DNA of 14,363 nucleotides. Source: a virus. Lineage: Duplodnaviria; Heunggongvirae; Uroviricota; Caudoviricetes. The first letter of the stretch is position 1. Each line of letters begins with the position of its first letter. Where the stretch lies: the IMG/VR virus record IMGVR_UViG_2681813233_000009, one strand, 5' to 3'. The notes under the pieces were generated by a model. That model ran no database searches and was not told the DNA's origin. It saw nothing but the letters and a program-made list of their open reading frames with translations. Below are positions 1-14,106 of the stretch, in pieces. The position numbers and the translations under genes are program-made.

Positions 1-20
1 TCTGGATAATGCCAGCGTAG
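1..20. repeat. attL-side copy of att core (direct repeat; may extend left of the window)
   Basis: Identical to 14033-14052; sequences diverge immediately 3' of ...gcgtag (tcgtggcg here versus ggaagtca at the right copy). Confidence 0.7.
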
Positions 21-1555: not shown

Positions 1556-2578
1556 CTATTCGGAAGTGACTTGGCTTTGCTTTTTTATCGTTCTGGTTTT
1601 CAACATTTCAATCTGGCCAGCTTCGGTTAATGACCAGAAAGTATTCATGCTGCCATTGGTGGTTTTTAAATATTCAATTTTTATCAAACCATATGCCCTA
1701 AATTGCACTCCTATCGTTTTAAGGTCTTGAGAAGATACTTTTGCTGATGTGCCTCCCTTGCCTGCGACCTTTTGAGCGCTTTTGGCAATTGTGTATGATA
1801 CGCTTGATTCAGTATAATATTGAGTGAGATAGGGGGAGATTGAGTGAAAAATATCCTTCCATTTCATTTTCACGGACCAGTGTTTTGTTCCACCGGGATC
1901 ATACCCGATTCGAGGAAAGGTGGACTCACATCTAAATTCAAAATCATCATCAAAGTCAGCCAGATCCAGATCAAGTGTTTGACTAAGATTACTTGTGGCC
2001 TTGGCTAGTTCACTTTTTAACCATTCATTCTCTTTTTGTAAATCAACCATAGCCCGTAAATCAGTTTCAGAAGACGTTAGGTTGGCTCTTACCCATCCGA
2101 TTGCTGGATAAGTTTTCATCGTTTTACTCATACTTAAAGCAACCAACCCGGGTAAATCTTTGGCTGTTGCCCATGTTTTCCTGAGACGATTGGTTGAGGC
2201 CTTCTCTATAAATGCAGCTAGCTTCTCTCTGAGTTCAGAATCTTTTTCAGATTTGGCTAAAGGTAGATTTTCCGGATTCTCATGTACCAAAACAACGACG
2301 CGTAAACCTTTTGAAACTGCGTAATCGAATTCCTTTTCCGTGTAACTTAAACCATCTTCCGCGACAGAGCCATAACGACCACCAATGATCAGCAGATAAT
2401 AATCACAGTCATCAATTACTTTTTTTATGAACTCCCATTGGCCTTCATCGATTGCTGGGAACAACTCCATGCCTGCTGGAATGCAATCCATTTCCATCAG
2501 AGTTTGTATGACGTGTTTTCGTTCTTCTTCTAAATCCGTAAAAGTTGAACTTACGAAAACCTGGTAACGTTTATCCAT
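1556..2578 (-). CDS. Cargo protein, 340 aa, with N-terminal DUF4062-like motif ([16 protein letters not shown]); candidate defense or abortive-infection protein
   Basis: ATG at 2576-2578 (minus) with AAGGGA RBS; uninterrupted 340-codon ORF; visibly more AT-rich than neighbouring genes; N-terminal FVSSTF-DL-EER motif matches my recollection of the DUF4062 family; central coiled-coil-like segment ([28 protein letters not shown]). Domain assignment not verified by HMM. Confidence 0.8.
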
Positions 2579-3903: not shown

Positions 3904-4923
3904 TTACTTCAGCTTGACGTTCAGCATGTAGTTCGGGCGCAGGTTCAGAGGAATGAAGCTCGCCTCTTGGTGAACGGTCACCATGCCGTAACGGTCAGTC
4001 ATTACTTTTTGGTAGTAAGGGCTGATCACACCTTTAGCGGAGATATCCTGATTACGTGAAGCCGGGCCGCGTACCAGTTTGAACGGGTTACGATCCGCTG
4101 CACTGAACTTTGGAACGAACAGGCCGGAACCTGCCGCGATTTCGTAGCGGTCATCGTCCGCCAGAATGAAAGTAATGTTGCCAATGCTGAAGGAGTCATA
4201 ACCCGCAGTGTTAACCGGGATCAGAGCGCCTTTTGCAGCCTCCGCCACTTTGTTGGTGATCAGGCTGGTTACTTCTGGGTGGCTCGCCAGAACGTCATAC
4301 AGATCCGGGGAGCAGAAGCAATAGAAGCGGTCCAGATAGGAGCGGCTCGCGCCGTACTCTTTAACCAACATGCGGCGAATCTTCGCAAGCTGTGCATAGA
4401 CGTTAGCGCCTGCTGAACCGTCGAGGTCGAAACTCAGCGGAGCAGTACCAAACACAGCGTTAAAATCTACGTCGCCGTCATCCGTTTTAGCCGCTTTCGC
4501 TTCCTGCTTGAACAGGGCGCGGGCCAGTGTGCTTTCAACTGTTTCCAGATGATAGTTACGCATACGGATAGCTTTATCAGCAATAACAGATGTGATCGCC
4601 TGAGCCTGATCCGGGTTAGCCGGGCTTACCAGGCCTTGCCAGTCAGCGGTTTTTACATCCGCCTCAGTGGCATAGTGTGGGATCTCCTGGTTACGCAGGA
4701 TGGTTTTATCCATCATGATCGCGTTAACTTCGGTGCCATAGCGGGCAACCTGCTCCAGTTCACTAACCTGAGTTTCCACAATATCCACAATCTGGGCGTT
4801 TGGAGTGGTTGAGTTAACATCGGAGAAGATACCCAGATCAGAGATCAGGTAATTACCTGCTGGTTGATCTTTGATCGCCGCTACAGTGTCCAGCTTTTCA
4901 AACTGTTTAAAATCAATAGCCAT
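3904..4923 (-). CDS. Putative phage major capsid protein, 339 aa (family not verified)
   Basis: ATG at 4921-4923 (minus), AGGAA RBS; starts 12 bp after the stop of the upstream small gene (small-gene/capsid-gene arrangement as in lambda D-E); A/D/S/T-rich composition typical of virion proteins. Capsid assignment is by context and gestalt, not by alignment. Confidence 0.6.
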   Translation of the reverse strand: MAIDFKQFEKLDTVAAIKDQPAGNYLISDLGIFSDVNSTTPNAQIVDIVETQVSELEQVARYGTEVNAIMMDKTILRNQEIPHYATEADVKTADWQGLVSPANPDQAQAITSVIADKAIRMRNYHLETVESTLARALFKQEAKAAKTDDGDVDFNAVFGTAPLSFDLDGSAGANVYAQLAKIRRMLVKEYGASRSYLDRFYCFCSPDLYDVLASHPEVTSLITNKVAEAAKGALIPVNTAGYDSFSIGNITFILADDDRYEIAAGSGLFVPKFSAADRNPFKLVRGPASRNQDISAKGVISPYYQKVMTDRYGMVTVHQEASFIPLNLRPNYMLNVKLK

Positions 4924-4935
4924 TGTGTGATTTCC

Positions 4936-5307
4936 TTATGCTTTGAAGTAATCGGCGTTGATAGCCAGGCGAATATCACCGGAGGCTGTCAGCGCTTCCA
5001 GTGCGGCTTTTTTGCTCGCGGCGTCTTTAGCACGTAGGGCAAAATCGGTAATCACAACATGGCGATCCACGATAACCAGCGTTTTAGTCTTGCCATCGGC
5101 GGACATATTGGAAAGGTTAATGATCGGCTTGCCAGCTTCAGCGGCGGCGGAGTCGAACAGGGCAAAAGTTTTGCTGTCCAGAATATCGCCACAGTAGACG
5201 TCAGCCGGGAGGCTTGGGGCGGTTACTTCGGTGCGGTCAAACAGGCTGGAGGCGTAGTTGACGATTACGTCACCTTGCGTTACCGGGTAGCGCTCGGAAG
5301 TTTTCAT
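4936..5307 (-). CDS. Putative head decoration or capsid-associated protein, 123 aa
   Basis: ATG at 5305-5307 (minus) with AAGGAAAA RBS; the track ORF extends to 5451 but lacks an RBS there; tightly coupled (12 bp) to the downstream capsid gene. Confidence 0.5.
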   Translation of the reverse strand: MKTSERYPVTQGDVIVNYASSLFDRTEVTAPSLPADVYCGDILDSKTFALFDSAAAEAGKPIINLSNMSADGKTKTLVIVDRHVVITDFALRAKDAASKKAALEALTASGDIRLAINADYFKA

Positions 5308-5437
5308 AAAGGTTTTCCTTATGGAGGGTTTTAGACGTGGAGAGAGTCCACAGGATGATCCGGCGTTGCACCGAATATAAGGACCGCCACAGAGGACAAT
5401 CCGAATTGTTGGAAGATGGGAGGCCGTGGATTGAATA

Positions 5438-5467
5438 GAAGAGGGCGGCATCCGCGCCGCCCTTTCT
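5438..5467 (-). terminator. GC hairpin with flanking U-rich tracts upstream of the capsid operon (possible leader terminator)
   Basis: 7-bp stem gggcggc/gccgccc (5443-5449 with 5456-5462), loop atccgc; tttct follows on plus, and tcttctatt follows on the minus RNA; lies about 135 bp upstream of the decoration-gene start. Confidence 0.4.
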
Positions 5468-6551
5468 AATCTGGCTCTCTCTCACCCTCGCGGGTGGGGA
5501 AGGATATTTATCCTTTTGTGTGGATACTTGCCGCCCCTGGTGGCGTCACGTCGAATAGCACCAACCTTTTGGCAAATACCCACAAAAAAGAACCCGGCTG
5601 GAGGAACCGGGGTGGACAATGTAACTTACTGTATGATCACTTGTTTTCCTGTGTAGCCTCAGAGCCTTACATGATTTGCTTTCATGGTTCAGCAAAGAAG
5701 CCACAGAGGAAAACGGGCACCCTGAACGCGCCCGGAAACCATCGACGCAAATCAATAGTTTATCGTTGAGACCAGGTAACCAGCCCGGCCCAACTGTGAC
5801 CCCGTGGAGGGTCGATACAATTGAAGGAGATTCGCTTGTATTCTGAAGAGCCGCAGTTAGCGACGCTTTAGAATAGGGCCTGTGGCGCAAGCACTATGAT
5901 TAGAGGCGTTTTGAATCGTAGGAGTGAAACAATCGGCGGAACTTGAGGAGAGGACCGCACACAAAGCATTCTGGCAAGTGGAGTTGAAAGAACACTTTGG
6001 GTGAGGGCCGGGGCGGGGGAGAAGCCGCCCGGCTCACTCAGTACAGATCCTAATTGCACACGTTGCGACTCTGTACAGGTGGGGGGCGTGACAAGCTGCA
6101 AAACGGTAATTTCGATATCCTCGCCACACCCCACACCATGTATATTAGTTTAACACGAATGATTATCATTTGCAATAAAAATTAATTGCATTGTGTTGAG
6201 TCTTATGATATTGGCGGCCACACACGTGACGGATCAGATCTGCATTAATTTTTATTAGTGAGTGGTCTGACTCAGGGAGGGCTATGTGTCCCAAAAGACA
6301 CACGAAGTAATAATAGATATATAAGACCTCGCTACGCTCGCCCTCCGGGTCCGTCTTATTGATCTTATATAATAACTTCATTCAATAACTAATTGTTTTC
6401 ACAATTAATCATTTCATTCGTTATTATATGATCTTAAAACCTTCTCGCCCTTTGGGCTTACCAGGTTTTAGGCCGGGGCCTATTTCCCCACAATGTAGAG
6501 TCTCGCCTGTGTGGCTCATCTCCCGGGGGGCATTTTGAAACAAGGGTGTAC

Positions 6552-6612
6552 TGACAAAATGTCACAACGTGTTATGACAGATTGGCACAACGTGTTATGA
6601 CAAAATGTCACA
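6552..6612. promoter_or_regulatory. Cluster of dyad-symmetric repeats (operator- or iteron-like)
   Basis: 17-mer cacaacgtgttatgaca occurs twice (6563-6579 and 6586-6602), 6 bp apart; 15-mer tgacaaaatgtcaca occurs twice (6552-6566 and 6598-6612); each unit is itself a near-palindrome (TGACA-aaa-TGTCA; TGTCAcAACG/tGTTaTGACA). Confidence 0.5.
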
Positions 6613-7052
6613 TAATAAGATAAGTATATAAAACACCCTTAAAAGACAAACACCTAGGGCCAGGTCAAGATCTTAAAGAGATTGAGGGTGAATTATTGAT
6701 TGAACAATCAAGAGATCAGACTCTTTAGGAAAGAGCCTTACAGGCTCGCCTCCCTTTTGGGGCAATCGCAGAAACAGAAACCGCAACGCGGTTTTCTTTT
6801 CTGCTCTTTGGGAACACCGGAACGATGTGAAGGTGACATCTGGGCGGCGGGGTGGGGTGCCCGGCGCGGAGTGATACACAGTACAGAACCACAACCCACA
6901 GGAACCAACCTAAACGCGCCTCTGTGGCGCTCTCTCATATGCAGACACGGAAACACCTTATAAACACCCTGCGCCTCACTGAGAGCGTTACAGCGGCTTT
7001 CTATGCCTCTAGCACAATAAACAACTGAGCGCAAGATAAATCAAGAAAGTTG

Positions 7053-7081
7053 TTGCGAATCATTGTCAAATAGTGTAAAAT
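7053..7081 (+). promoter_or_regulatory. Candidate sigma70 promoter for the plus-strand operon
   Basis: TTGCGA (7053-7058), 17-bp spacer, TAAAAT (7076-7081), about 75 bp upstream of the ATG at 7156. Read by eye only. Confidence 0.3.
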
Positions 7082-7155
7082 AGATACTGTGATGAGGTAT
7101 TTATTCGAATATATAGATCCCCATCATACTATAACAAACATGAAAGGAGATTGCA

Positions 7156-7862: not shown

Positions 7863-8041
7863 TGCAGATTGAATTTTCCCCCGAAGTGGCGGATCAGCTT
7901 TTTGAGTTGGCCCGCACAAGGAAGCACGGCTCCGCCTACGCAATCGTAAGAAAAGCAGTTAAGCAGTATTTGGATTCAGTTGAAGCTATTAACCCTGTTG
8001 AAGAGGATTTAACCCATGACCGCAGCACCCGCAGCAAGTAA
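7862..8041 (+). CDS. Small ribbon-helix-helix-like DNA-binding protein, 59 aa (absent from the ORF track)
   Basis: ATG at 7862-7864 overlapping the upstream stop (TAATG); translation MQIEFSPEVADQLFELARTRKHGSAYAIVRKAVKQYLDSVEAINPVEEDLTHDRSTRSK has an RHH-like strand-helix-Gly-helix pattern; overlaps the next gene by 26 nt in another frame. Confidence 0.5.
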   Translation: MQIEFSPEVADQLFELARTRKHGSAYAIVRKAVKQYLDSVEAINPVEEDLTHDRSTRSK

Positions 8042-8681
8042 GCCGTTTACCGCAATCCCGCATGACCTTGCGGACATTGAACAGATCAGCGGTAAGGCGT
8101 TTACCATGAACATGGTTTACACCTACAGCCTGATCAAATCCTTCCAGGACAATGGGCAAACGGCTTATTTCTCACAGGAGCTTTTGGCCCGTCGCCTGGG
8201 GGCATCCATCCGCAGCGTGATCCGCCTCCTGGCGGAGATGGTGGAAATGGGATTGATCAATAGTACCGGGCGCGTGGGTGGCAAGACCTGCCATTACACA
8301 GTTAACCCGATCACCCCGGAAATGGTGGGAACCCCTGAAGCCGCCAAACCTGAAGTAACCAAACCAACCGCAGCACCCCAACCCGTGGAGACCGTAGAGA
8401 ATGCAGGAAGTAACCAGCCTGGAATTGTTAAGTGTGGATCTGAAAGCGTACATAGAAGCCGCCCGGCGTCGTCTGGAGTTGCTCCTGTGGACCACAGCGG
8501 GGGCGCTGTTCGTCCCGCTCCTGTCCCTGTGCCAGTAGAGCAGGGGGCCGCAAACGATGATTTACGTAACCCTGTTATTAATTATGTGGCTGGCTCTAAT
8601 GTGATGATGGTCAACGGTTTGCCTGTTGAATATCTGGAGCCAGAAGAAAGCGGCATTGATCAGTTTGGTGATGCCTTCTAA
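8016..8681 (+). CDS. Putative winged-helix DNA-binding protein, 221 aa (replication initiator or regulator candidate)
   Basis: ATG with GAGGA upstream; HTH/winged-helix-like segment FSQELLARRLGASIRSVIRLLAEMVEMGLINSTGRVGG; Pro/Ala-rich linker and acidic C-terminal tail (EPEESGIDQFGDAF). Confidence 0.7.
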   Translation: MTAAPAASKPFTAIPHDLADIEQISGKAFTMNMVYTYSLIKSFQDNGQTAYFSQELLARRLGASIRSVIRLLAEMVEMGLINSTGRVGGKTCHYTVNPITPEMVGTPEAAKPEVTKPTAAPQPVETVENAGSNQPGIVKCGSESVHRSRPASSGVAPVDHSGGAVRPAPVPVPVEQGAANDDLRNPVINYVAGSNVMMVNGLPVEYLEPEESGIDQFGDAF

Positions 8682-9324: not shown

Positions 9325-9495
9325 TTATGTCCAACCCAACGGAATGGGACCTAAAGGATTACTTAGGTTCCAAACTGGTTAAGCGTCAGACAAGACTCTC
9401 TAACTTTCTCGCCCCCTTCCTCTATATCCCCTTTAAGCCCGCTTCCCTCCTCCTGTGGGTAGTGGTAATCACTTTCATTATAAGGACTCTCTCAA

Positions 9496-9870: not shown

Positions 9871-11990
9871 TGAGCGGTAACGTCATCATCACGAAGACCG
9901 TAAACAGAACTACGTTCACCACGGACGGGGCCAGCTATAAGAAGACGGTTGACCGTATCAAACAGGTGGGGAAAGAGTGGGATAAAGTCTCCTCTAAAAT
10001 GAAGCCTCTACGGATGAAATTTGAGGAAAACGCCTACACCAAGATCCGCCGGAAACAGCAGGACGCCACCGCAAAAGCAGCACTGGCAGAAGCCAAAGCC
10101 AAAGCCGCAGCGGAAGCCAAAGCGGCAAAAGCCCAACTAGCAGCGGAGCGTAAACTCCAGACAATCCGCGCTAAAGCTATTCGCTTTAATACCGCAGCGG
10201 CTAACGCCAACGTTACCCCGGCCCAACGTGCTGGACACCTCCAGGAGTTTGGACAGCTTACGCGCCAGTATCACGCCGGGTCTATGGCATTACAGGAATA
10301 TAACGCCCGTGTGTCACGCCTTCAGCAAACCATGCGCCAACAAGGCCGGGTAGGCATGAGGGGAGCCACAATTCCCGTAACCGCCAAAGTAAACAAACTG
10401 GATACCTCCATGATCGAGGGTGCAGGCGGGGCGATCACAATTGCCGCCACTGTGGCACTCTCCGGCAAGATCATGACTACCGGACAGGATTTTGAATCCG
10501 CTATGTCTGGTCTTACAGCGATCACCGGTTCCACAGAAAAAGCCGGGAAAGAGTTTGATTATCTTCGTGAACAGTCCAACCGTCTGGGGCTGGACCTTCT
10601 GAAAACTTCAAAAGACTATACGCAGTTTGCCGCCGCTGTTGGGGACAAACTCCCTAAAGACCAGATGCGATCCATCTTTGAGGGTGCTTCAGAGTGGGGC
10701 CTTGTTACTGGTGCATCCGCAGATGAGCAATCACGTGCGTTAAAGGCCCTTAACCAGATGATGTCTAAGGGTACGGTCATGAGTGAAGAACTTAAAGGCC
10801 AGTTGTCCGAGGCTCTCCCCGGCTCTGTGGGTCTGTTCGTTAAAGCCCTTAACGACATGAAAGGCGTTACCAACCTGACCGAGCAAGATTTGTTTAAGCT
10901 GATGGAAGACGGGAAGCTGTTCTCTAAGGACATCCTCCCACATGTGGCTAAACAGATGAAGGAAGCGGCCCGGCAGGGTGGCGCACTTGATAAGGCGATG
11001 AAGTCCAACCGGGCATCATGGCAGCGCCTCAATACCAGTATGCAGAACGCTATGAATGTGTTTTTCACTTCTGGCTTCGGTAACTCCCTTACCAACGCTT
11101 TCGACTCAATCAGCGCCGCTATTGACGGATCTGGTGGAGCCTTTGAGATGTTCGGGCATATCGCCGGGAAAATCGTTGAAGGTGCCACAGATGCGTTTAC
11201 AGAGTTGCATGACACTGTGATCCTGACCTTCCGCATTATTGAGTATTACGCCGCCAAAATGGGGATCAGTGGGGAGCAGCTCAAAGCCTGGGGAGAAATG
11301 GCAGCATATGCCGCCGGGGTGGCTCTGTTCGCTGGCTCTGTTTACAAGTTGGGCGGGGCTTTCAAGTGGGTCCTCACCATGCTGAACCCTCTTACCAAGT
11401 TGTTGGGAGTCATGAAGGGGATCGCCGCTATTGGTGGCATTGAGGCCGCTTCTGAAGCTCTGAGCGACGGTAAGCCAGGTAAAGACGGCCAGCCGGGCAA
11501 ACCGGGAACCCCATCAAAGAACACCAAGCCGATCGGCGCGGGCCGTGGCGTTAACTTTGGCCTCCCGGCTATTATCGCCGCTGTATCTCTGAATGACCGC
11601 CTTGATCAGATTCAGGCAGACCCGGAAGCGTTTAAGCGAAAGGTACAGGAGAATAATGATCGGCCTACGCTGTGGACTGACATCATGGAAGCATTCTCCG
11701 GCAGTTGGTACGAAAAGCAGCAGAACGCAAACCAGCAGGCAGCACAGACCGCAGCACTCGATCAGACTGTTCGTGTTGCTGTTCCAACCTTCATCCCTCC
11801 AACCACAGCGACGGTTACAGGTGGCTACGGTAATCCACTGATGACGCCGCCAGCGTGGCTAAACCAGCCGCTAAACGTGAGCGTTAATGTGAAGGTGCAA
11901 GATGGACAGGTGAAAAACCTTGTGCAATCTGAGATTGAACGTAATGAACAGGCGGCATTTAACATGCTGATGCAGGGCGGGCCAAACTAA
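9870..11990 (+). CDS. Phage tail tape-measure-like protein, 706 aa
   Basis: N-terminal Ala/Lys-rich coiled-coil (AKAALAEAKAKAAAEAKAAKAQLAAERKL); central segment LKGQLSEALPGSVGLFVKALNDMKGVTNLTEQDLFKLMEDGKLFSKDILPHVAKQMKEAAR resembles the conserved tape-measure motif as I recall it; hydrophobic Gly/Ala-rich segments; collagen-like GKPGKDGQPGKPGTP; followed by a terminator. Confidence 0.8.
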   Translation: MSGNVIITKTVNRTTFTTDGASYKKTVDRIKQVGKEWDKVSSKMKPLRMKFEENAYTKIRRKQQDATAKAALAEAKAKAAAEAKAAKAQLAAERKLQTIRAKAIRFNTAAANANVTPAQRAGHLQEFGQLTRQYHAGSMALQEYNARVSRLQQTMRQQGRVGMRGATIPVTAKVNKLDTSMIEGAGGAITIAATVALSGKIMTTGQDFESAMSGLTAITGSTEKAGKEFDYLREQSNRLGLDLLKTSKDYTQFAAAVGDKLPKDQMRSIFEGASEWGLVTGASADEQSRALKALNQMMSKGTVMSEELKGQLSEALPGSVGLFVKALNDMKGVTNLTEQDLFKLMEDGKLFSKDILPHVAKQMKEAARQGGALDKAMKSNRASWQRLNTSMQNAMNVFFTSGFGNSLTNAFDSISAAIDGSGGAFEMFGHIAGKIVEGATDAFTELHDTVILTFRIIEYYAAKMGISGEQLKAWGEMAAYAAGVALFAGSVYKLGGAFKWVLTMLNPLTKLLGVMKGIAAIGGIEAASEALSDGKPGKDGQPGKPGTPSKNTKPIGAGRGVNFGLPAIIAAVSLNDRLDQIQADPEAFKRKVQENNDRPTLWTDIMEAFSGSWYEKQQNANQQAAQTAALDQTVRVAVPTFIPPTTATVTGGYGNPLMTPPAWLNQPLNVSVNVKVQDGQVKNLVQSEIERNEQAAFNMLMQGGPN

Positions 11991-12004
11991 CCGCCAATAT
12001 AATA

Positions 12005-12031
12005 AAGGCTCCCCTAGTGGGAGCCTTTTCT
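12005..12031 (+). terminator. Rho-independent terminator after the tape-measure-like gene
   Basis: 7-bp stem ggctccc/gggagcc (12006-12012 with 12018-12024), loop ctagt, followed by ttttctctttt. Confidence 0.6.
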
Positions 12032-12060
12032 CTTTTATACATTTCTAATGTCCTGGCTTT

Positions 12061-12627
12061 TCATAACAGATCCGCTATTGAATATTTATCACTAAAATCA
12101 TCTACTTTGCGTTGTGTGGCCCCAATGTAATGAAGCGTACTGGATAACGATTTGTGCCCTAATGCTTTACTAATTACAGCTATATCCTCCCCATTGTCAT
12201 AACCAATCGTTGGTTTACTCTTCCTCATGCTGTGGGTCGAAAGATTCAGCCCCAGCTTTTCCCCGGCGTAGCTAATTTCCTCATGCAATTTGGAGCGGCT
12301 CACAGGTTTTCCCTTGCTCCTGTGGCTGTCCAACTGTAAGAGGTACACATTATCAGGGTTAGCCTCTCTCCGGGCCGCTATGATGCGTTTAGCGGTATCG
12401 GTAAGCCTCACCCGGACAGATTCACCCGTTTTCTGTTGGGACAGGACAAGGTGATCGCCTTTGATGTCGGCATAACGGATAGAGCGCAGATCCGACACCC
12501 TCAGCATTAATTCATAACCCAATAACCAGGCGTCACGGTACAGCGTCAGCCCCTTGCCCTGTTTGAGTAGCTCAACTGCTACCGCTTTCACTTCCTGAAC
12601 TGATTTACAGCCCTCTACGAAATTCAT
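12061..12627 (-). CDS. Small tyrosine recombinase, catalytic domain only (FimB/FimE-sized), 188 aa
   Basis: ATG at 12625-12627 (minus) with GGAGAG RBS; the track ORF begins at an upstream TTG without an RBS; motifs LRVSDLRSIRYADI (Arg), HSMRKS (His-x-x-Arg), LGHKSLSSTLHY (His and Tyr). Confidence 0.8.
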   Translation of the reverse strand: MNFVEGCKSVQEVKAVAVELLKQGKGLTLYRDAWLLGYELMLRVSDLRSIRYADIKGDHLVLSQQKTGESVRVRLTDTAKRIIAARREANPDNVYLLQLDSHRSKGKPVSRSKLHEEISYAGEKLGLNLSTHSMRKSKPTIGYDNGEDIAVISKALGHKSLSSTLHYIGATQRKVDDFSDKYSIADLL

Positions 12628-13020
12628 TCTGTACTCTCCAGAACCTAACTGTGATAAATTTTTGATCAAAAACAAGCACTTGTAAACGACAAAAATTATT
12701 AATTTTAAGTTGTGTCTTTTTAGTGAATTAAATCGGGTTTAATCGCGTTTAATGGCAGAGTAATGACCCGGCAGGGGAGGTAATGGGCTGTTTATGTGGG
12801 TAAAAGATGGTTGCTTAATGTACTATTACCACAAGACGGGTAAGGTGATTTGACTCCCTCAGTTCCTTTAAGCTACTGTATTTATGGGAAATTAATTATT
12901 GTTTCTTTATGGTGTTGCCTGGCAAATTTTCAGTTTACCCTCAAGAAAAATCCCCATCTTTTTTATTCTCCACATGAGAATAAATTTTGTTTGCAAATAT
13001 CACTCATTCTCAACTCCAGT

Positions 13021-13199
13021 CGGGGCGAAAGCCTTCGCCCCTTAAAGGGCCTTTGTAGGCTCGCTCTCTGTATGCGCCTGTGGCGCTACCACTCTCAACC
13101 CTGTGGGTTTGTATGGCTTGCCACAAGATAACGCGCCACAGGCGCACAGGGGAGGCGGACGCCTCCTGGGTGGCCCGGCTGGGCCACTGGTCCACAGGG
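13021..13199. other. GC-rich structured non-coding segment (multiple hairpins and a paired palindrome)
   Basis: Hairpin ggggcgaa/ttcgcccc (13022-13041); palindromes gcgcctgtggcgc (13074-13086) and its exact reverse complement gcgccacaggcgc (13133-13145); hairpins ggaggcg..cgcctcc and ggccc..gggcc (13150-13185); the only ORFs here lack RBS and context. Confidence 0.35.
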
Positions 13200-13588
13200 T
13201 AAAAGGACAGAATGGTATTGTGTTGTTATTAAGTTGTTGAGATTAAAGGGATGTCTTAGGGGGGACTGTAGTGGAGGAAGGTTGGGCAGGGTTTAATCAG
13301 AATGCAGGTCACTCGGCAGGGAGTGCCCTTAGATATTTGGCGAAAATACACGTGACCCCCCAGGGCCTCAGGTTGAAGGGCCTAGCAACAATATCCAAAC
13401 TCCCGGATATTTTCCCACCCAACTGGAAGGAATCCGCCCCTATTTTCTGTTCGTGTATAAGTTAGGCTGAGGGAGGCTTGCCAATGTACACCCCCTGGAT
13501 TTGGTGATCTGTTAAGTTATTGATTTTGATCGATTTTAGATCAATCATCCGTTGCCGGGATTACCCCCACCCAGACGGATGGCACACA

Positions 13589-13771
13589 ATGAATAACGAT
13601 AAAGCAAACCACCCTAAACACTTCCAATACTTGGGCCGCATGGTCACTGTTTACCCTACATACATCATTATTGACGGTATCAAGATTAGCCGTTCCCGTC
13701 TTTCCTTTGCATTCCAATTGGAATTGGCAAAAGCACTTCGACTGCATGAAGAAAGCGTATGCAGAAAATAG
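13589..13771 (+). CDS. Hypothetical small protein, 60 aa (alternative TTG start at 13520 gives 83 aa)
   Basis: ATG at 13589 with a weak GGA-containing RBS; followed by a strong terminator; no family recognised. Confidence 0.35.
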   Translation: MNNDKANHPKHFQYLGRMVTVYPTYIIIDGIKISRSRLSFAFQLELAKALRLHEESVCRK

Positions 13772-13807
13772 ATTTCATTTAAATCTTCACGACTGAATAA
13801 TTTACTT

Positions 13808-13832
13808 AAGCCGCCTTATGGGCGGTTTTTTT
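13808..13832 (+). terminator. Rho-independent terminator
   Basis: Stem ccgcc/ggcgg (13811-13815 with 13821-13825), loop ttatg, followed by a 7-T run (13826-13832). Confidence 0.6.
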
Positions 13833-13981
13833 GTGCCTGCCATTTATCTGTGGGTCACAACGTGAGACACAAACTGGGACACAGAGGATTTTTTAGGGTT
13901 GAGTCTTTGGCTTCCCGCTGGCATGATCCAGAACAGGGATTAACGGGACGTTAATCGCAAGCTTTTGATTTTGTTTTATTT

Positions 13982-14106
13982 GACTCGGGGTGCCCTTCTG
14001 CGTGAAGGCTGAGAAATACCCGTATCACCTGATCTGGATAATGCCAGCGTAGGGAAGTCACGGACCACCAGGTCATTGCTTCTTCACGTTATGGCAGGAG
14101 CAAACT
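13982..14106 (+). promoter_or_regulatory. TPP (THI-box) riboswitch of thiM: aptamer plus expression platform
   Basis: Sequence gactcggggtgcccttctgcgtgaaggctgagaaatacccgtatcacctgatctggataatgccagcgtagggaag matches the E. coli thiM TPP aptamer as I recall it (including the conserved CUGAGA element); it runs into the thiM RBS (aggag at 14096-14100). Confidence 0.9.
14033..14052. repeat. attR-side copy of att core, lying inside the TPP aptamer
   Basis: Identical to positions 1-20. Confidence 0.7.

Follow-up and report, generated by a model that had tools for sequence, protein, structure and literature searches.

The DNA analyzed in this work is a stretch of 14,363 nucleotides (nt) deposited as IMG/VR virus record IMGVR_UViG_2681813233_000009, the whole of which is referred to as the window in the following. 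It holds an integrative element of ~14 kb inserted into an Escherichia coli chromosome, and in addition to its integrase this element encodes a second, small tyrosine recombinase that lies next to ORF-poor DNA (ORF, open reading frame). Our findings point to a module in which the small recombinase would act on an imperfect palindrome of 31 base pairs (bp) within this non-coding DNA (13200-13230; Table 1). Across the recombinase family the gene is linked to such a palindrome, the two arms of the palindrome co-vary, and the site is present as a single copy. We put the probability that gene and palindrome form a self-contained resolution or cyclisation module, with the palindrome as its cognate site, at about 0.5. 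An earlier analysis of the nucleotide sequence alone (the original prediction) had offered two possibilities for this locus, a switch for DNA inversion or phase variation and a dedicated excision or resolution function. A compact Cre/lox- or Xer/dif-like resolution module fits better than an inversion switch, and the comparative evidence favours the resolution part of the second proposal; resolution or cyclisation would be the biological role of the system.

The mechanically derived ORF of the small recombinase covers 12061-12675 on the minus strand. Its start was taken to be the ATG at 12627, which is preceded by GGAGAG and gives a protein of 188 amino acids (aa), the same length as that of the annotated coding sequences of relatives. 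The protein matches PF00589 with residues 33-170 (E = 1.2e-16; 61.4 bits against a cut-off of 27.1) as well as phrog_216, annotated as 'integrase' (8e-29), and its alignment to XerA and XerD is limited to the C-terminal catalytic halves of these enzymes (chain residues ~125-280). In an alignment of 19 homologues reaching down to ~30% identity, R43, K66, H132, R135, H158 and Y167 are invariant. As this catalytic hexad is complete, the protein is not an inactive fragment that has lost its tyrosine or an arginine, the outcome that would have spoken against the original prediction. The AlphaFold2 model (mean predicted local distance difference test score, pLDDT, 86.9; predicted template modelling score, pTM, 0.83) resembles XerA (5hxy), the catalytic domain of lambda Int, XerH and Cre, the top structures retrieved by Foldseek with a probability of 1.00. 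Judged by its sequence, the protein is an intact tyrosine recombinase consisting of the catalytic domain only, and the best explanation of the locus includes that it would be active and Xer-like. A second, small, catalytic-domain-only recombinase had been proposed before, and the PF00589 match, the partial Xer alignment and the length typical of the family bear this out. The equivalog models for XerA, XerC, XerD and XerS were all missed by a wide margin (22-50 bits against cut-offs of 220-335). The protein had also been placed in the size class of FimB/FimE-type invertases, which is correct for its size (~190-200 aa in that class) but does not extend to family membership, the NCBIfam models for FimB/FimE (NF007370 and NF007371) yielding 24.9 and 18.8 bits against cut-offs of 221 and 222. 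None of the defence-system models of PADLOC matched the recombinase or its neighbours.

The candidate site is composed of two 14-bp arms and a 3-bp centre (13214-13216). It contains an inner 17-mer (13207-13223) of the form ACASAAT-N3-ATTSTGT that occurs only once in the window. This motif or a clade-specific equivalent is found ~100 bp upstream of the recombinase gene in ~50 homologous loci. In Pseudomonas and Stutzerimonas relatives with ~40% identity, for example, palindromes such as CTAATTAACAGAAT-ACT-ATTGTGTAAATTAG are located ~100-125 bp upstream of the start codon, and a 12-kb plasmid from Macrococcus carries AAGTAACACAAT-ATAA-ATTATGTTACAT at -128. Besides Pseudomonas and Stutzerimonas, the palindrome-bearing genomes comprise those of the Vibrio/Shewanella type and of Erwinia/Pectobacterium, and metagenome-assembled genomes of cyanobacterial, Chloroflexi, Methylococcales, Bacteroidota and Pirellulaceae origin. 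A palindrome matching in at least 10 of 12 positions is present between -330 and -60 in 40 of 72 usable loci, the background rate per window being 14% (p = 3e-16). When a 14+3+14 template was applied, a score of 10/14 or higher was reached by 53 loci. The centres of almost all palindromes are situated at ~-100, or at ~-190 where the protein match starts at residue 32. In the enterobacterial clade of the window the distance to the ATG is considerably larger and amounts to 588 nt in the window, 585-594 nt in Serratia and ~750 nt in Cronobacter (overall range 585-755).

The arms are clade-specific (CTAATTAACAGAAT, CTAAGTAACACAAT, CTACTTCACACAAT, CAAGTTCCCAAATT, CTGCTTCCCATATT, CTCAAATCTCCCAC). 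Within a locus they agree at 11.2 of 14 positions on average, as opposed to 6.4 of 14 between loci, and the maximum reached in 2000 shuffles was 7.5. Since arms match within but not between loci, the site co-evolves with the protein. A single site within ±10 kb is the rule in the family (52 of 53 loci), and each of the 28 matching E. coli genomes contains exactly one. No second copy outside the element was detected in 5426 E. coli genomes, and the site was absent from a phage collection of 50,697 phage records. The sole locus of the 53 with two cognate-type sites stems from Ectothiorhodospira marina (L020:4030-5626), where sites 1.57 kb apart flank a type IV pilin-like ORF (4456-4884, minus strand) adjoining the small recombinase; the enzyme of this organism might invert or excise the pilin cassette.

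The degree of conservation shifts sharply at the palindrome centre. On its far side, a stretch of 45 nt in the window is 64% identical to Cronobacter, whereas on the gene side identity reaches 97% over 150 nt; the value for the element as a whole is ~85%. The far flank is also mosaic among E. coli elements; in strain SCU-316 it is Cronobacter-like, and the near flank resembles that of E. coli. For this strain, an exact crossover at the site was considered and rejected, as the mosaic boundary lies ~30 nt off the centre. Likewise rejected was an action of host XerCD, because the arms, compared by eye with the E. coli dif sequence, resemble it poorly. We infer that the palindrome is a crossover site and more than a mere binding site because all catalytic residues of the recombinase are conserved, because the palindrome of the enterobacterial clade is retained ~490 bp beyond the promoter with half-sites still present over the promoter, and because conservation breaks at the palindrome centre. 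A palindrome that has been kept at distances of 588 nt and, in Cronobacter, ~750 nt from the ATG is furthermore unlikely to be a purely promoter-proximal operator. Its 14+3+14 arrangement, 31 bp in total, matches known core sites in size and layout. The direct repeats and GC palindromes highlighted in the original prediction would not be the recombination site, for which the different sequence at 13200-13230 is the candidate.

At least 163 clusters of homologues at E ≤ 1e-10 emerged when 1.84 billion representatives (clusters at 50% identity) were searched exhaustively without a profile. The best 150 cluster representatives are, with few exceptions, 180-195 aa long and alignable over their entire length; a short protein confined to the catalytic domain is therefore the norm in this family. 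Close homologues (76-98% identity) occur solely in E. coli, Cronobacter and Serratia and always on the same kind of element, with the gene order capsid, gpD-like, ~2 kb of non-coding DNA, small genes, HTH_36, a 188-aa gene, phiTE_211, TMP_3 and small recombinase, the latter being accompanied by ~0.9-1 kb of non-coding DNA. The integrases, by contrast, differ: the tyrosine enzyme of 451 aa in the window is replaced by a large serine recombinase of 583 aa in Cronobacter and by tyrosine integrases of 542-554 aa or 388 aa in Serratia. Stutzerimonas carries a smaller element with a DUF6538 tyrosine integrase of 495 aa, in which the order Rep-like, TMP_3 and small recombinase is preserved. The small recombinase thus qualifies as a core gene of the element family, whichever integrase is present. 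Between E. coli and Serratia, it is 77-79% identical, compared with 28% for the capsid protein and 32-57% for the TMP_3 protein.

Homologues are furthermore encoded on plasmids (410 PLSDB records at E ≤ 1e-8, among them Vibrio plasmids of ~80 kb), on temperate phages of Bacillus and Streptococcus (Firmicutes) and on Streptococcus satellites, where integrase and small recombinase occupy opposite ends. On the Macrococcus plasmid, the homologue is the only recombinase annotated within the 10.7 kb examined. All of these are circular replicons, and the distribution agrees with a role in resolution or cyclisation. In marine gammaproteobacteria (Vibrio, Shewanella and Psychromonas; locus L026), we observed a recurrent cluster of RadC, two DUF2787 genes, recombinase plus palindrome, an NlpC/LRAT-like gene and YagK/YfjJ on the opposite strand, which is typical of accessory regions of islands or integrative and conjugative elements. 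No description of the recombinase family or its site was found in the literature, and pattern scans of IMG/VR with two conserved motifs returned chance hits alone.

In the explanation we favour, the 188-aa recombinase would act on its cognate palindrome, and gene and site would form a self-contained module with one recombinase and one site, as do XerS/difSL, Cre/loxP and TnpI/IRS. Because each element contains one site, the only substrates would be two copies of the element. Recombination between such copies would yield monomer circles from dimers or concatemers, be the element excised, replicating or injected; alternatively, a packaged multimer might be cyclised. Half-sites over the promoter of the recombinase gene would bring about autoregulation, and a GATC palindrome in the same promoter could couple expression to replication. 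Several points weigh against this explanation. The site of the window is the least symmetrical of the family, its arms agreeing at only 9 of 14 positions overall, albeit at 6 of 7 in their inner part, and no clear palindrome was apparent upstream of the homologues on Vibrio plasmid p48/10 and phage BtCS33. No recombination product was seen, nor anything that shows cleavage at the palindrome. An enzyme devoid of a core-binding domain would have to grip 14-bp arms alone. An autoregulatory operator, too, is a palindrome upstream of a gene, and there is no obvious need for plasmid-type dimer resolution in an integrated satellite.

The palindrome and the half-sites may instead be bound, without any recombination, by a DNA-binding regulator with a recombinase fold similar to MrpR/YopR, which would regulate the recombinase gene itself, the adjacent 60-aa gene or the induction of the element. 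MrpR indeed possesses a tyrosine-recombinase fold, has lost recombinase function and represses through repeated elements (PMC10516654). The overlap of half-sites with the -35 region in the window and with the ribosome-binding site in Pseudomonas relatives is in line with such a function, and a palindrome ~100 bp upstream is compatible with an operator or activator site. On the other hand, invariance of six catalytic residues down to ~30% identity would be unexpected if catalysis were dispensable, the full palindrome has been retained in spite of its large distance from the gene in the window, and 31 bp with 14-bp arms correspond to the size of a recombination core and not to that of a typical operator. 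We consider a purely regulatory protein unlikely. Still less likely is a second system for integration or exchange that would join the element to a helper phage, plasmid or satellite carrying the site or would swap the DNA on one side of it. The sharp break in conservation at the site, the mosaic far flank and the high similarity of the recombinase between genera in which capsid and tape-measure-like proteins have diverged speak for this reading. However, a partner site outside the element was found neither in the E. coli genomes nor in the phage records searched, and the boundary in SCU-316 is displaced from the site centre.

An invertase of the FimB/FimE kind would flip a promoter or regulatory segment of the 0.9-kb non-coding DNA or the module as a whole. 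In addition to the size of the recombinase and the two sites around the pilin-like ORF in the distant relative from E. marina, two observations could be cited in its favour. First, the module (non-coding DNA plus gene) is co-oriented with TMP_3 in Serratia and Stutzerimonas, whereas E. coli and Cronobacter have it the other way round; no repeats, however, mark where this inversion between genera ends on either side. Second, an inverted repeat of 18 nt and 83% identity (12664-12681 / 13514-13531), the best one bracketing the region, encloses 832 nt, but it resides in divergent promoter regions and has no counterpart in the Serratia relatives, which do not possess the 60-aa gene. The original prediction had recommended a comparison of locus orientation across genomes and an inverted-repeat search of 12000-13600 against 5400-7100. 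All 27 E. coli genomes that cover at least 80% of 11900-14000 (as assemblies) align with this region as one collinear piece. Ten further non-redundant isolate or metagenome contigs (94-97% identity) and three Cronobacter contigs are collinear as well, and not one orientation variant was encountered in these three sets. The search, which was taken up to position 7150, gave no inverted repeats between the two non-coding regions above chance. With a single cognate site per element, no credible flanking inverted repeat, no orientation variant and scores far below the FimB/FimE cut-offs, an inversion or phase-variation switch is very improbable.

The features of the window are compiled in Table 1.

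Table 1. Features of the window, positions counted from its first nucleotide (a dot stands for no strand).
Feature	Position	Strand	Remarks
attL copy of 20-bp direct repeat TCTGGATAATGCCAGCGTAG	1-20	+	
Tyrosine integrase, 451 aa	108-1463		
DUF4062 cargo gene	1556-2578		
Major capsid protein, lambda gpE-like	3904-4923		
gpD-like protein	4936-5451		Weak match
ORF-poor DNA, ~1.7 kb	5450-7150		Three 21-nt iterons
HTH_36 / replication-initiator-like protein	8016-8681		
TMP_3 'tape measure' protein, 706 aa	9870-11990		
Small recombinase	12061-12627	-	
Non-coding DNA, 0.96 kb	12628-13588		
Promoter-like site of recombinase gene, TTTACA-17-AAAAAT	12658-12686	-	Consensus scan; kept in Cronobacter and Serratia
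Palindrome TTTTTGATCAAAAA with GATC (Dam) site	12659-12672		Overlaps recombinase promoter; conserved
Split half-sites, core-arm-like	12682-12720	-	GTAAACGACAA, 12682-12692 (over -35); AAAAGACACAAC, 12709-12720
Three ATTWAAY repeats, 10-bp-phased	12727-12754	.	Within conserved non-coding island
Perfect GC-rich hairpin/palindrome cluster	13022-13187	.	13022-13041, 13044-13054, 13073-13146, 13151-13166, 13170-13187
Candidate recombination site, 31-bp palindrome TAAAAGGACAGAAT-GGT-ATTGTGTTGTTATT	13200-13230	.	Gene linkage, arm co-variation, single copy
Two RAAATATCY boxes, far side of core site	13331-13413	-	13331-13339 and 13405-13413, 74 nt apart
Promoter/operator region of 60-aa ORF	13506-13588	+	Three GATC sites
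60-aa ORF	13589-13771	+	Followed by intrinsic terminator, 13808-13828
attR copy of TCTGGATAATGCCAGCGTAG	14033-14052	+	Within thiM TPP riboswitch (13976-14072)

The non-coding DNA adjoining the recombinase gene contains only short and overlapping mechanical ORFs. A hidden protein gene was rejected, as tblastx comparisons of E. coli, Cronobacter and Serratia uncovered neither a conserved ORF nor frame-specific conservation, and the earlier description of 12628-13588 as ORF-poor is therefore accurate. The same is true of the direct repeats atcgggtttaat/atcgcgtttaat (12731-12754) and of the paired GC palindromes TGCGCCTGTGGCGC (13073-13086) and GCGCCACAGGCGCA (13133-13146), which are present as described, the latter two being 100% complementary. 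The direct repeats are part of the ATTWAAY array, which is kept in Cronobacter and Serratia with 3-4 copies; beyond it follows an AT-rich, poorly conserved stretch of ~250 nt. At the position of the split half-sites of the window, Serratia has AATAAATACACAAG, and in the Pseudomonas relatives half-sites occur at -46 and -12. Autoregulation through these half-sites is suggested by their positions, and the promoter-like site with its GATC palindrome would have a regulatory role.

The hairpin cluster is confined to the element of the window. It folds far more stably than shuffled sequences (z = -6.1 and -4.8 for the two strands), and its core (13080-13199) is conserved like coding sequence, with a minor-state fraction of 0.02-0.03 as opposed to 0.08-0.20 in adjoining DNA. 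The stems between ~13073 and 13187 are invariant, substitutions being restricted to loops and to the interior of the long hairpin and including loop 'flips' such as TC to GA. Such flips inside perfect palindromes were seen between close relatives at 13158-13159 (GA versus TC) and at ~9470-9490 of loci L005 and L007 (ACA versus TGT); a loop that is reversed in a palindrome that is kept has the appearance of the signature left by template switching within DNA hairpins. At Rfam gathering and E-value thresholds, the thiM riboswitch was the only match in the window, and nothing credible was found in 12560-13900. The Serratia counterparts of the cluster are GC-rich without significant structure (z = -2.0 and -1.6). 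A conserved RNA structure was rejected, since the Serratia counterparts lack significant structure and the stems of E. coli and Cronobacter are invariant and hence offer no covariation. The cluster may serve the recombination locus as an accessory DNA element, may consist of several terminators or insulators, or may be an RNA.

The two RAAATATCY boxes are located ~120 and ~195 nt from the core site. The pair recurs with a spacing of 73-75 nt, amid otherwise variable DNA, in E. coli, in Cronobacter and in three types of Serratia element. Boxes and hairpins are candidates for accessory sequences of the recombination site. The most conserved non-coding stretch of the region is 13520-13599, in front of the 60-aa ORF, and the divergent promoter of this ORF contains three GATC sites within 37 nt (13506-13545). 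The 18-nt inverted repeat that this promoter has in common with the recombinase promoter, together with the GATC sites, suggests a common and perhaps methylation-sensitive control of both. The 60-aa ORF itself found no family match in profile searches and is missing from the Serratia relatives. The sequence CTGTGGCGC, of which the window holds four exact copies, all of them non-coding, was considered as a shared protein-binding site and rejected because, with one mismatch allowed, 9 occurrences against an expectation of 2.7 amount to a marginal enrichment, a count of 9 being attained by 1 of 200 shuffles. The only 16-mer common to both non-coding regions is at chance level.

At its right end, the window reaches thiM and the thiamine pyrophosphate (TPP) riboswitch of this gene (Rfam RF00059, 74.8 bits), and in E. 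coli strain 90-1 a homologous element is located between rcnR and thiM. The ends of the element are formed by a perfect direct repeat of 20 bp. The right copy lies within the Rfam match, and the left junction in strain 90-1 contains a second TPP aptamer that is slightly sub-threshold (53.3 bits; L001:1106-1202). It follows from both that the element, as read from these junctions, integrates inside the aptamer of the thiM riboswitch and supplies a replacement for its 5' half; presumably, the element also provides a promoter in front of thiM. We found no report in the literature of a riboswitch used as attachment site in this manner. Among complete E. coli genomes, matches concern the flank only in 5425 of 5426, the right-hand part of the element being present in just 37. 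The majority of these carriers contain a right-hand remnant truncated by IS4, in which the recombinase, the non-coding DNA and the 60-aa ORF are kept. In strain 11PC (L109), an additional deletion of 646 bp fuses position 12498 in the recombinase gene to position 13145 in the hairpin cluster; a site-specific event was rejected here in favour of a microhomology deletion.

The gene set of the element comprises a gpE-like capsid protein, a gpD-like protein, an HTH_36 Rep-like protein, phiTE_211, TMP_3 and the small recombinase. Seen by this gene set against known phage-satellite families (P4-like, PICI, cfPICI, PLE and PICMI), the element looks like an undescribed satellite-like family; no description of it was found in the literature and no similar DNA in the phage database. 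The family has two large ORF-poor regions, exchangeable integrases of the tyrosine or large serine type and a variable cargo slot, which is occupied by DUF4062 in the window and by an ATP-dependent nuclease in strain 90-1. The Stutzerimonas version seemingly lacks the capsid gene. In the region 5450-7150 the three iterons are spaced 23 nt (6546-6612), and GGGCGGCGGGGT at 6842-6853 resembles GGGCGGCGACCT, the lambda cohesive-end sequence. This DNA may serve as ori and cos.

Should the module function as proposed, a large and uncharacterised family with at least 163 clusters is defined, whose members would be the shortest site-specific tyrosine recombinases known and would each have a clade-specific 31-bp target. 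This bears on the question of how a lone catalytic domain recognizes its site and achieves synapsis. The 'second integrase' that appears in the annotation of many temperate phages, satellites and plasmids would acquire a function, and orthogonal, very compact pairs of recombinase and site would become available for genome engineering. More far-reaching, and put forward only tentatively, is the idea of a hitherto unrecognised, phylum-spanning class of minimal tyrosine recombinases of ~185 aa that act on an adjacent 31-bp palindrome in spite of lacking a core-binding domain and perhaps without any host factor. They would be the smallest self-contained Cre/lox-like systems and would fulfil a core life-cycle function, concatemer resolution or cyclisation, in undescribed satellites encoding capsid and tape-measure proteins and in many phages and satellites of Gram-positive bacteria. 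In that event, the hairpin cluster could be an accessory element or a regulatory RNA tied to the synapse, comparable to Rcd from cer. Of interest irrespective of the recombinase is an apparently undescribed satellite-like family that integrates inside a TPP riboswitch and, as it seems, rebuilds it.

Among known systems, the phrog_216 'integrases' of Bacillus and Streptococcus temperate phages and of Streptococcus satellites are of the same size as the recombinase of the window and align with it over the full length at ~30% identity. They, too, are present as a second recombinase besides an integrase, and the integrase and the small recombinase of satellite Javan591 sit at opposite ends, just as in the window. 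We found no functional study of these small recombinases in the literature. In contrast to the situation in the window, the Bacillus phages examined have the gene behind an ArpU-type late regulator, and no upstream palindrome was detected in two examples examined. MrpR (YopR) of SPbeta shares the tyrosine-recombinase fold, the location on a mobile element with a separate (serine) integrase and, in the case of MrpR, the binding of repeated elements, but the protein of the window keeps all catalytic residues. FimB/FimE and related enzymes (MrpI, RecV-type) likewise consist essentially of the catalytic domain alone. Invertases of this type act on two short inverted repeats around a promoter segment, and both orientations are found in assemblies; the window, unlike these systems, has neither paired inverted sites nor orientation polymorphism, and the family models are missed.

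The IRS of Tn4430 is built from symmetrical IR1 and IR2 motifs with a 4-bp spacer and cleavages 6 bp apart, and additional TnpI-binding motifs serve as accessory sequences that impose resolution (PMC2847244). The candidate site of the window similarly has symmetrical inverted motifs around a very short asymmetric spacer (3 bp), adjoins the recombinase gene and is accompanied by putative half-sites in place of the additional binding motifs of IRS. Sequences that might be accessory in the manner of cer/psi and IRS lie around the core, the RAAATATCY boxes on one side and hairpin cluster plus half-sites on the other. TnpI, however, is a full-length recombinase resolving transposition cointegrates, and the half-sites of the window are 490-530 nt away from the core, over a promoter, on an element without transposase. 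With Cre/loxP of phage P1, the module shares a recombinase encoded on a mobile element and one simple palindromic site per genome. Cre cyclises the injected DNA and resolves plasmid dimers; its expression is reportedly influenced by Dam methylation, and the recombinase promoter of the window holds a GATC palindrome. The differences are a two-domain enzyme of 343 aa, a loxP site of 13+8+13 bp and a sequence relationship that is not detectable beyond the superfamily level.

XerS is an enzyme composed of a core-binding and a catalytic domain. Its system is chromosomal, sited at the terminus and FtsK-dependent, whereas that of the window is part of a mobile element. XerS has 356 aa, and its 31-bp difSL site adjoins xerS to form 'a single module' (PMC5357621). 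XerS/difSL and XerH/difH share with the window a genetic link between one Xer-like tyrosine recombinase and a neighbouring imperfect palindrome of ~31 bp, and the linkage to a palindrome of ~28-31 bp by which Xer/dif modules are recognized is found here as well. Xer proteins are also the best matches of the 188-aa protein in sequence and structure, but the latter comprises the catalytic domain only, is encoded on mobile elements and scores far below the Xer equivalog cut-offs. From what its sequence indicates, the module resembles the single-recombinase Xer/dif, Cre/lox and TnpI/IRS systems and yet stands outside every curated Xer family.

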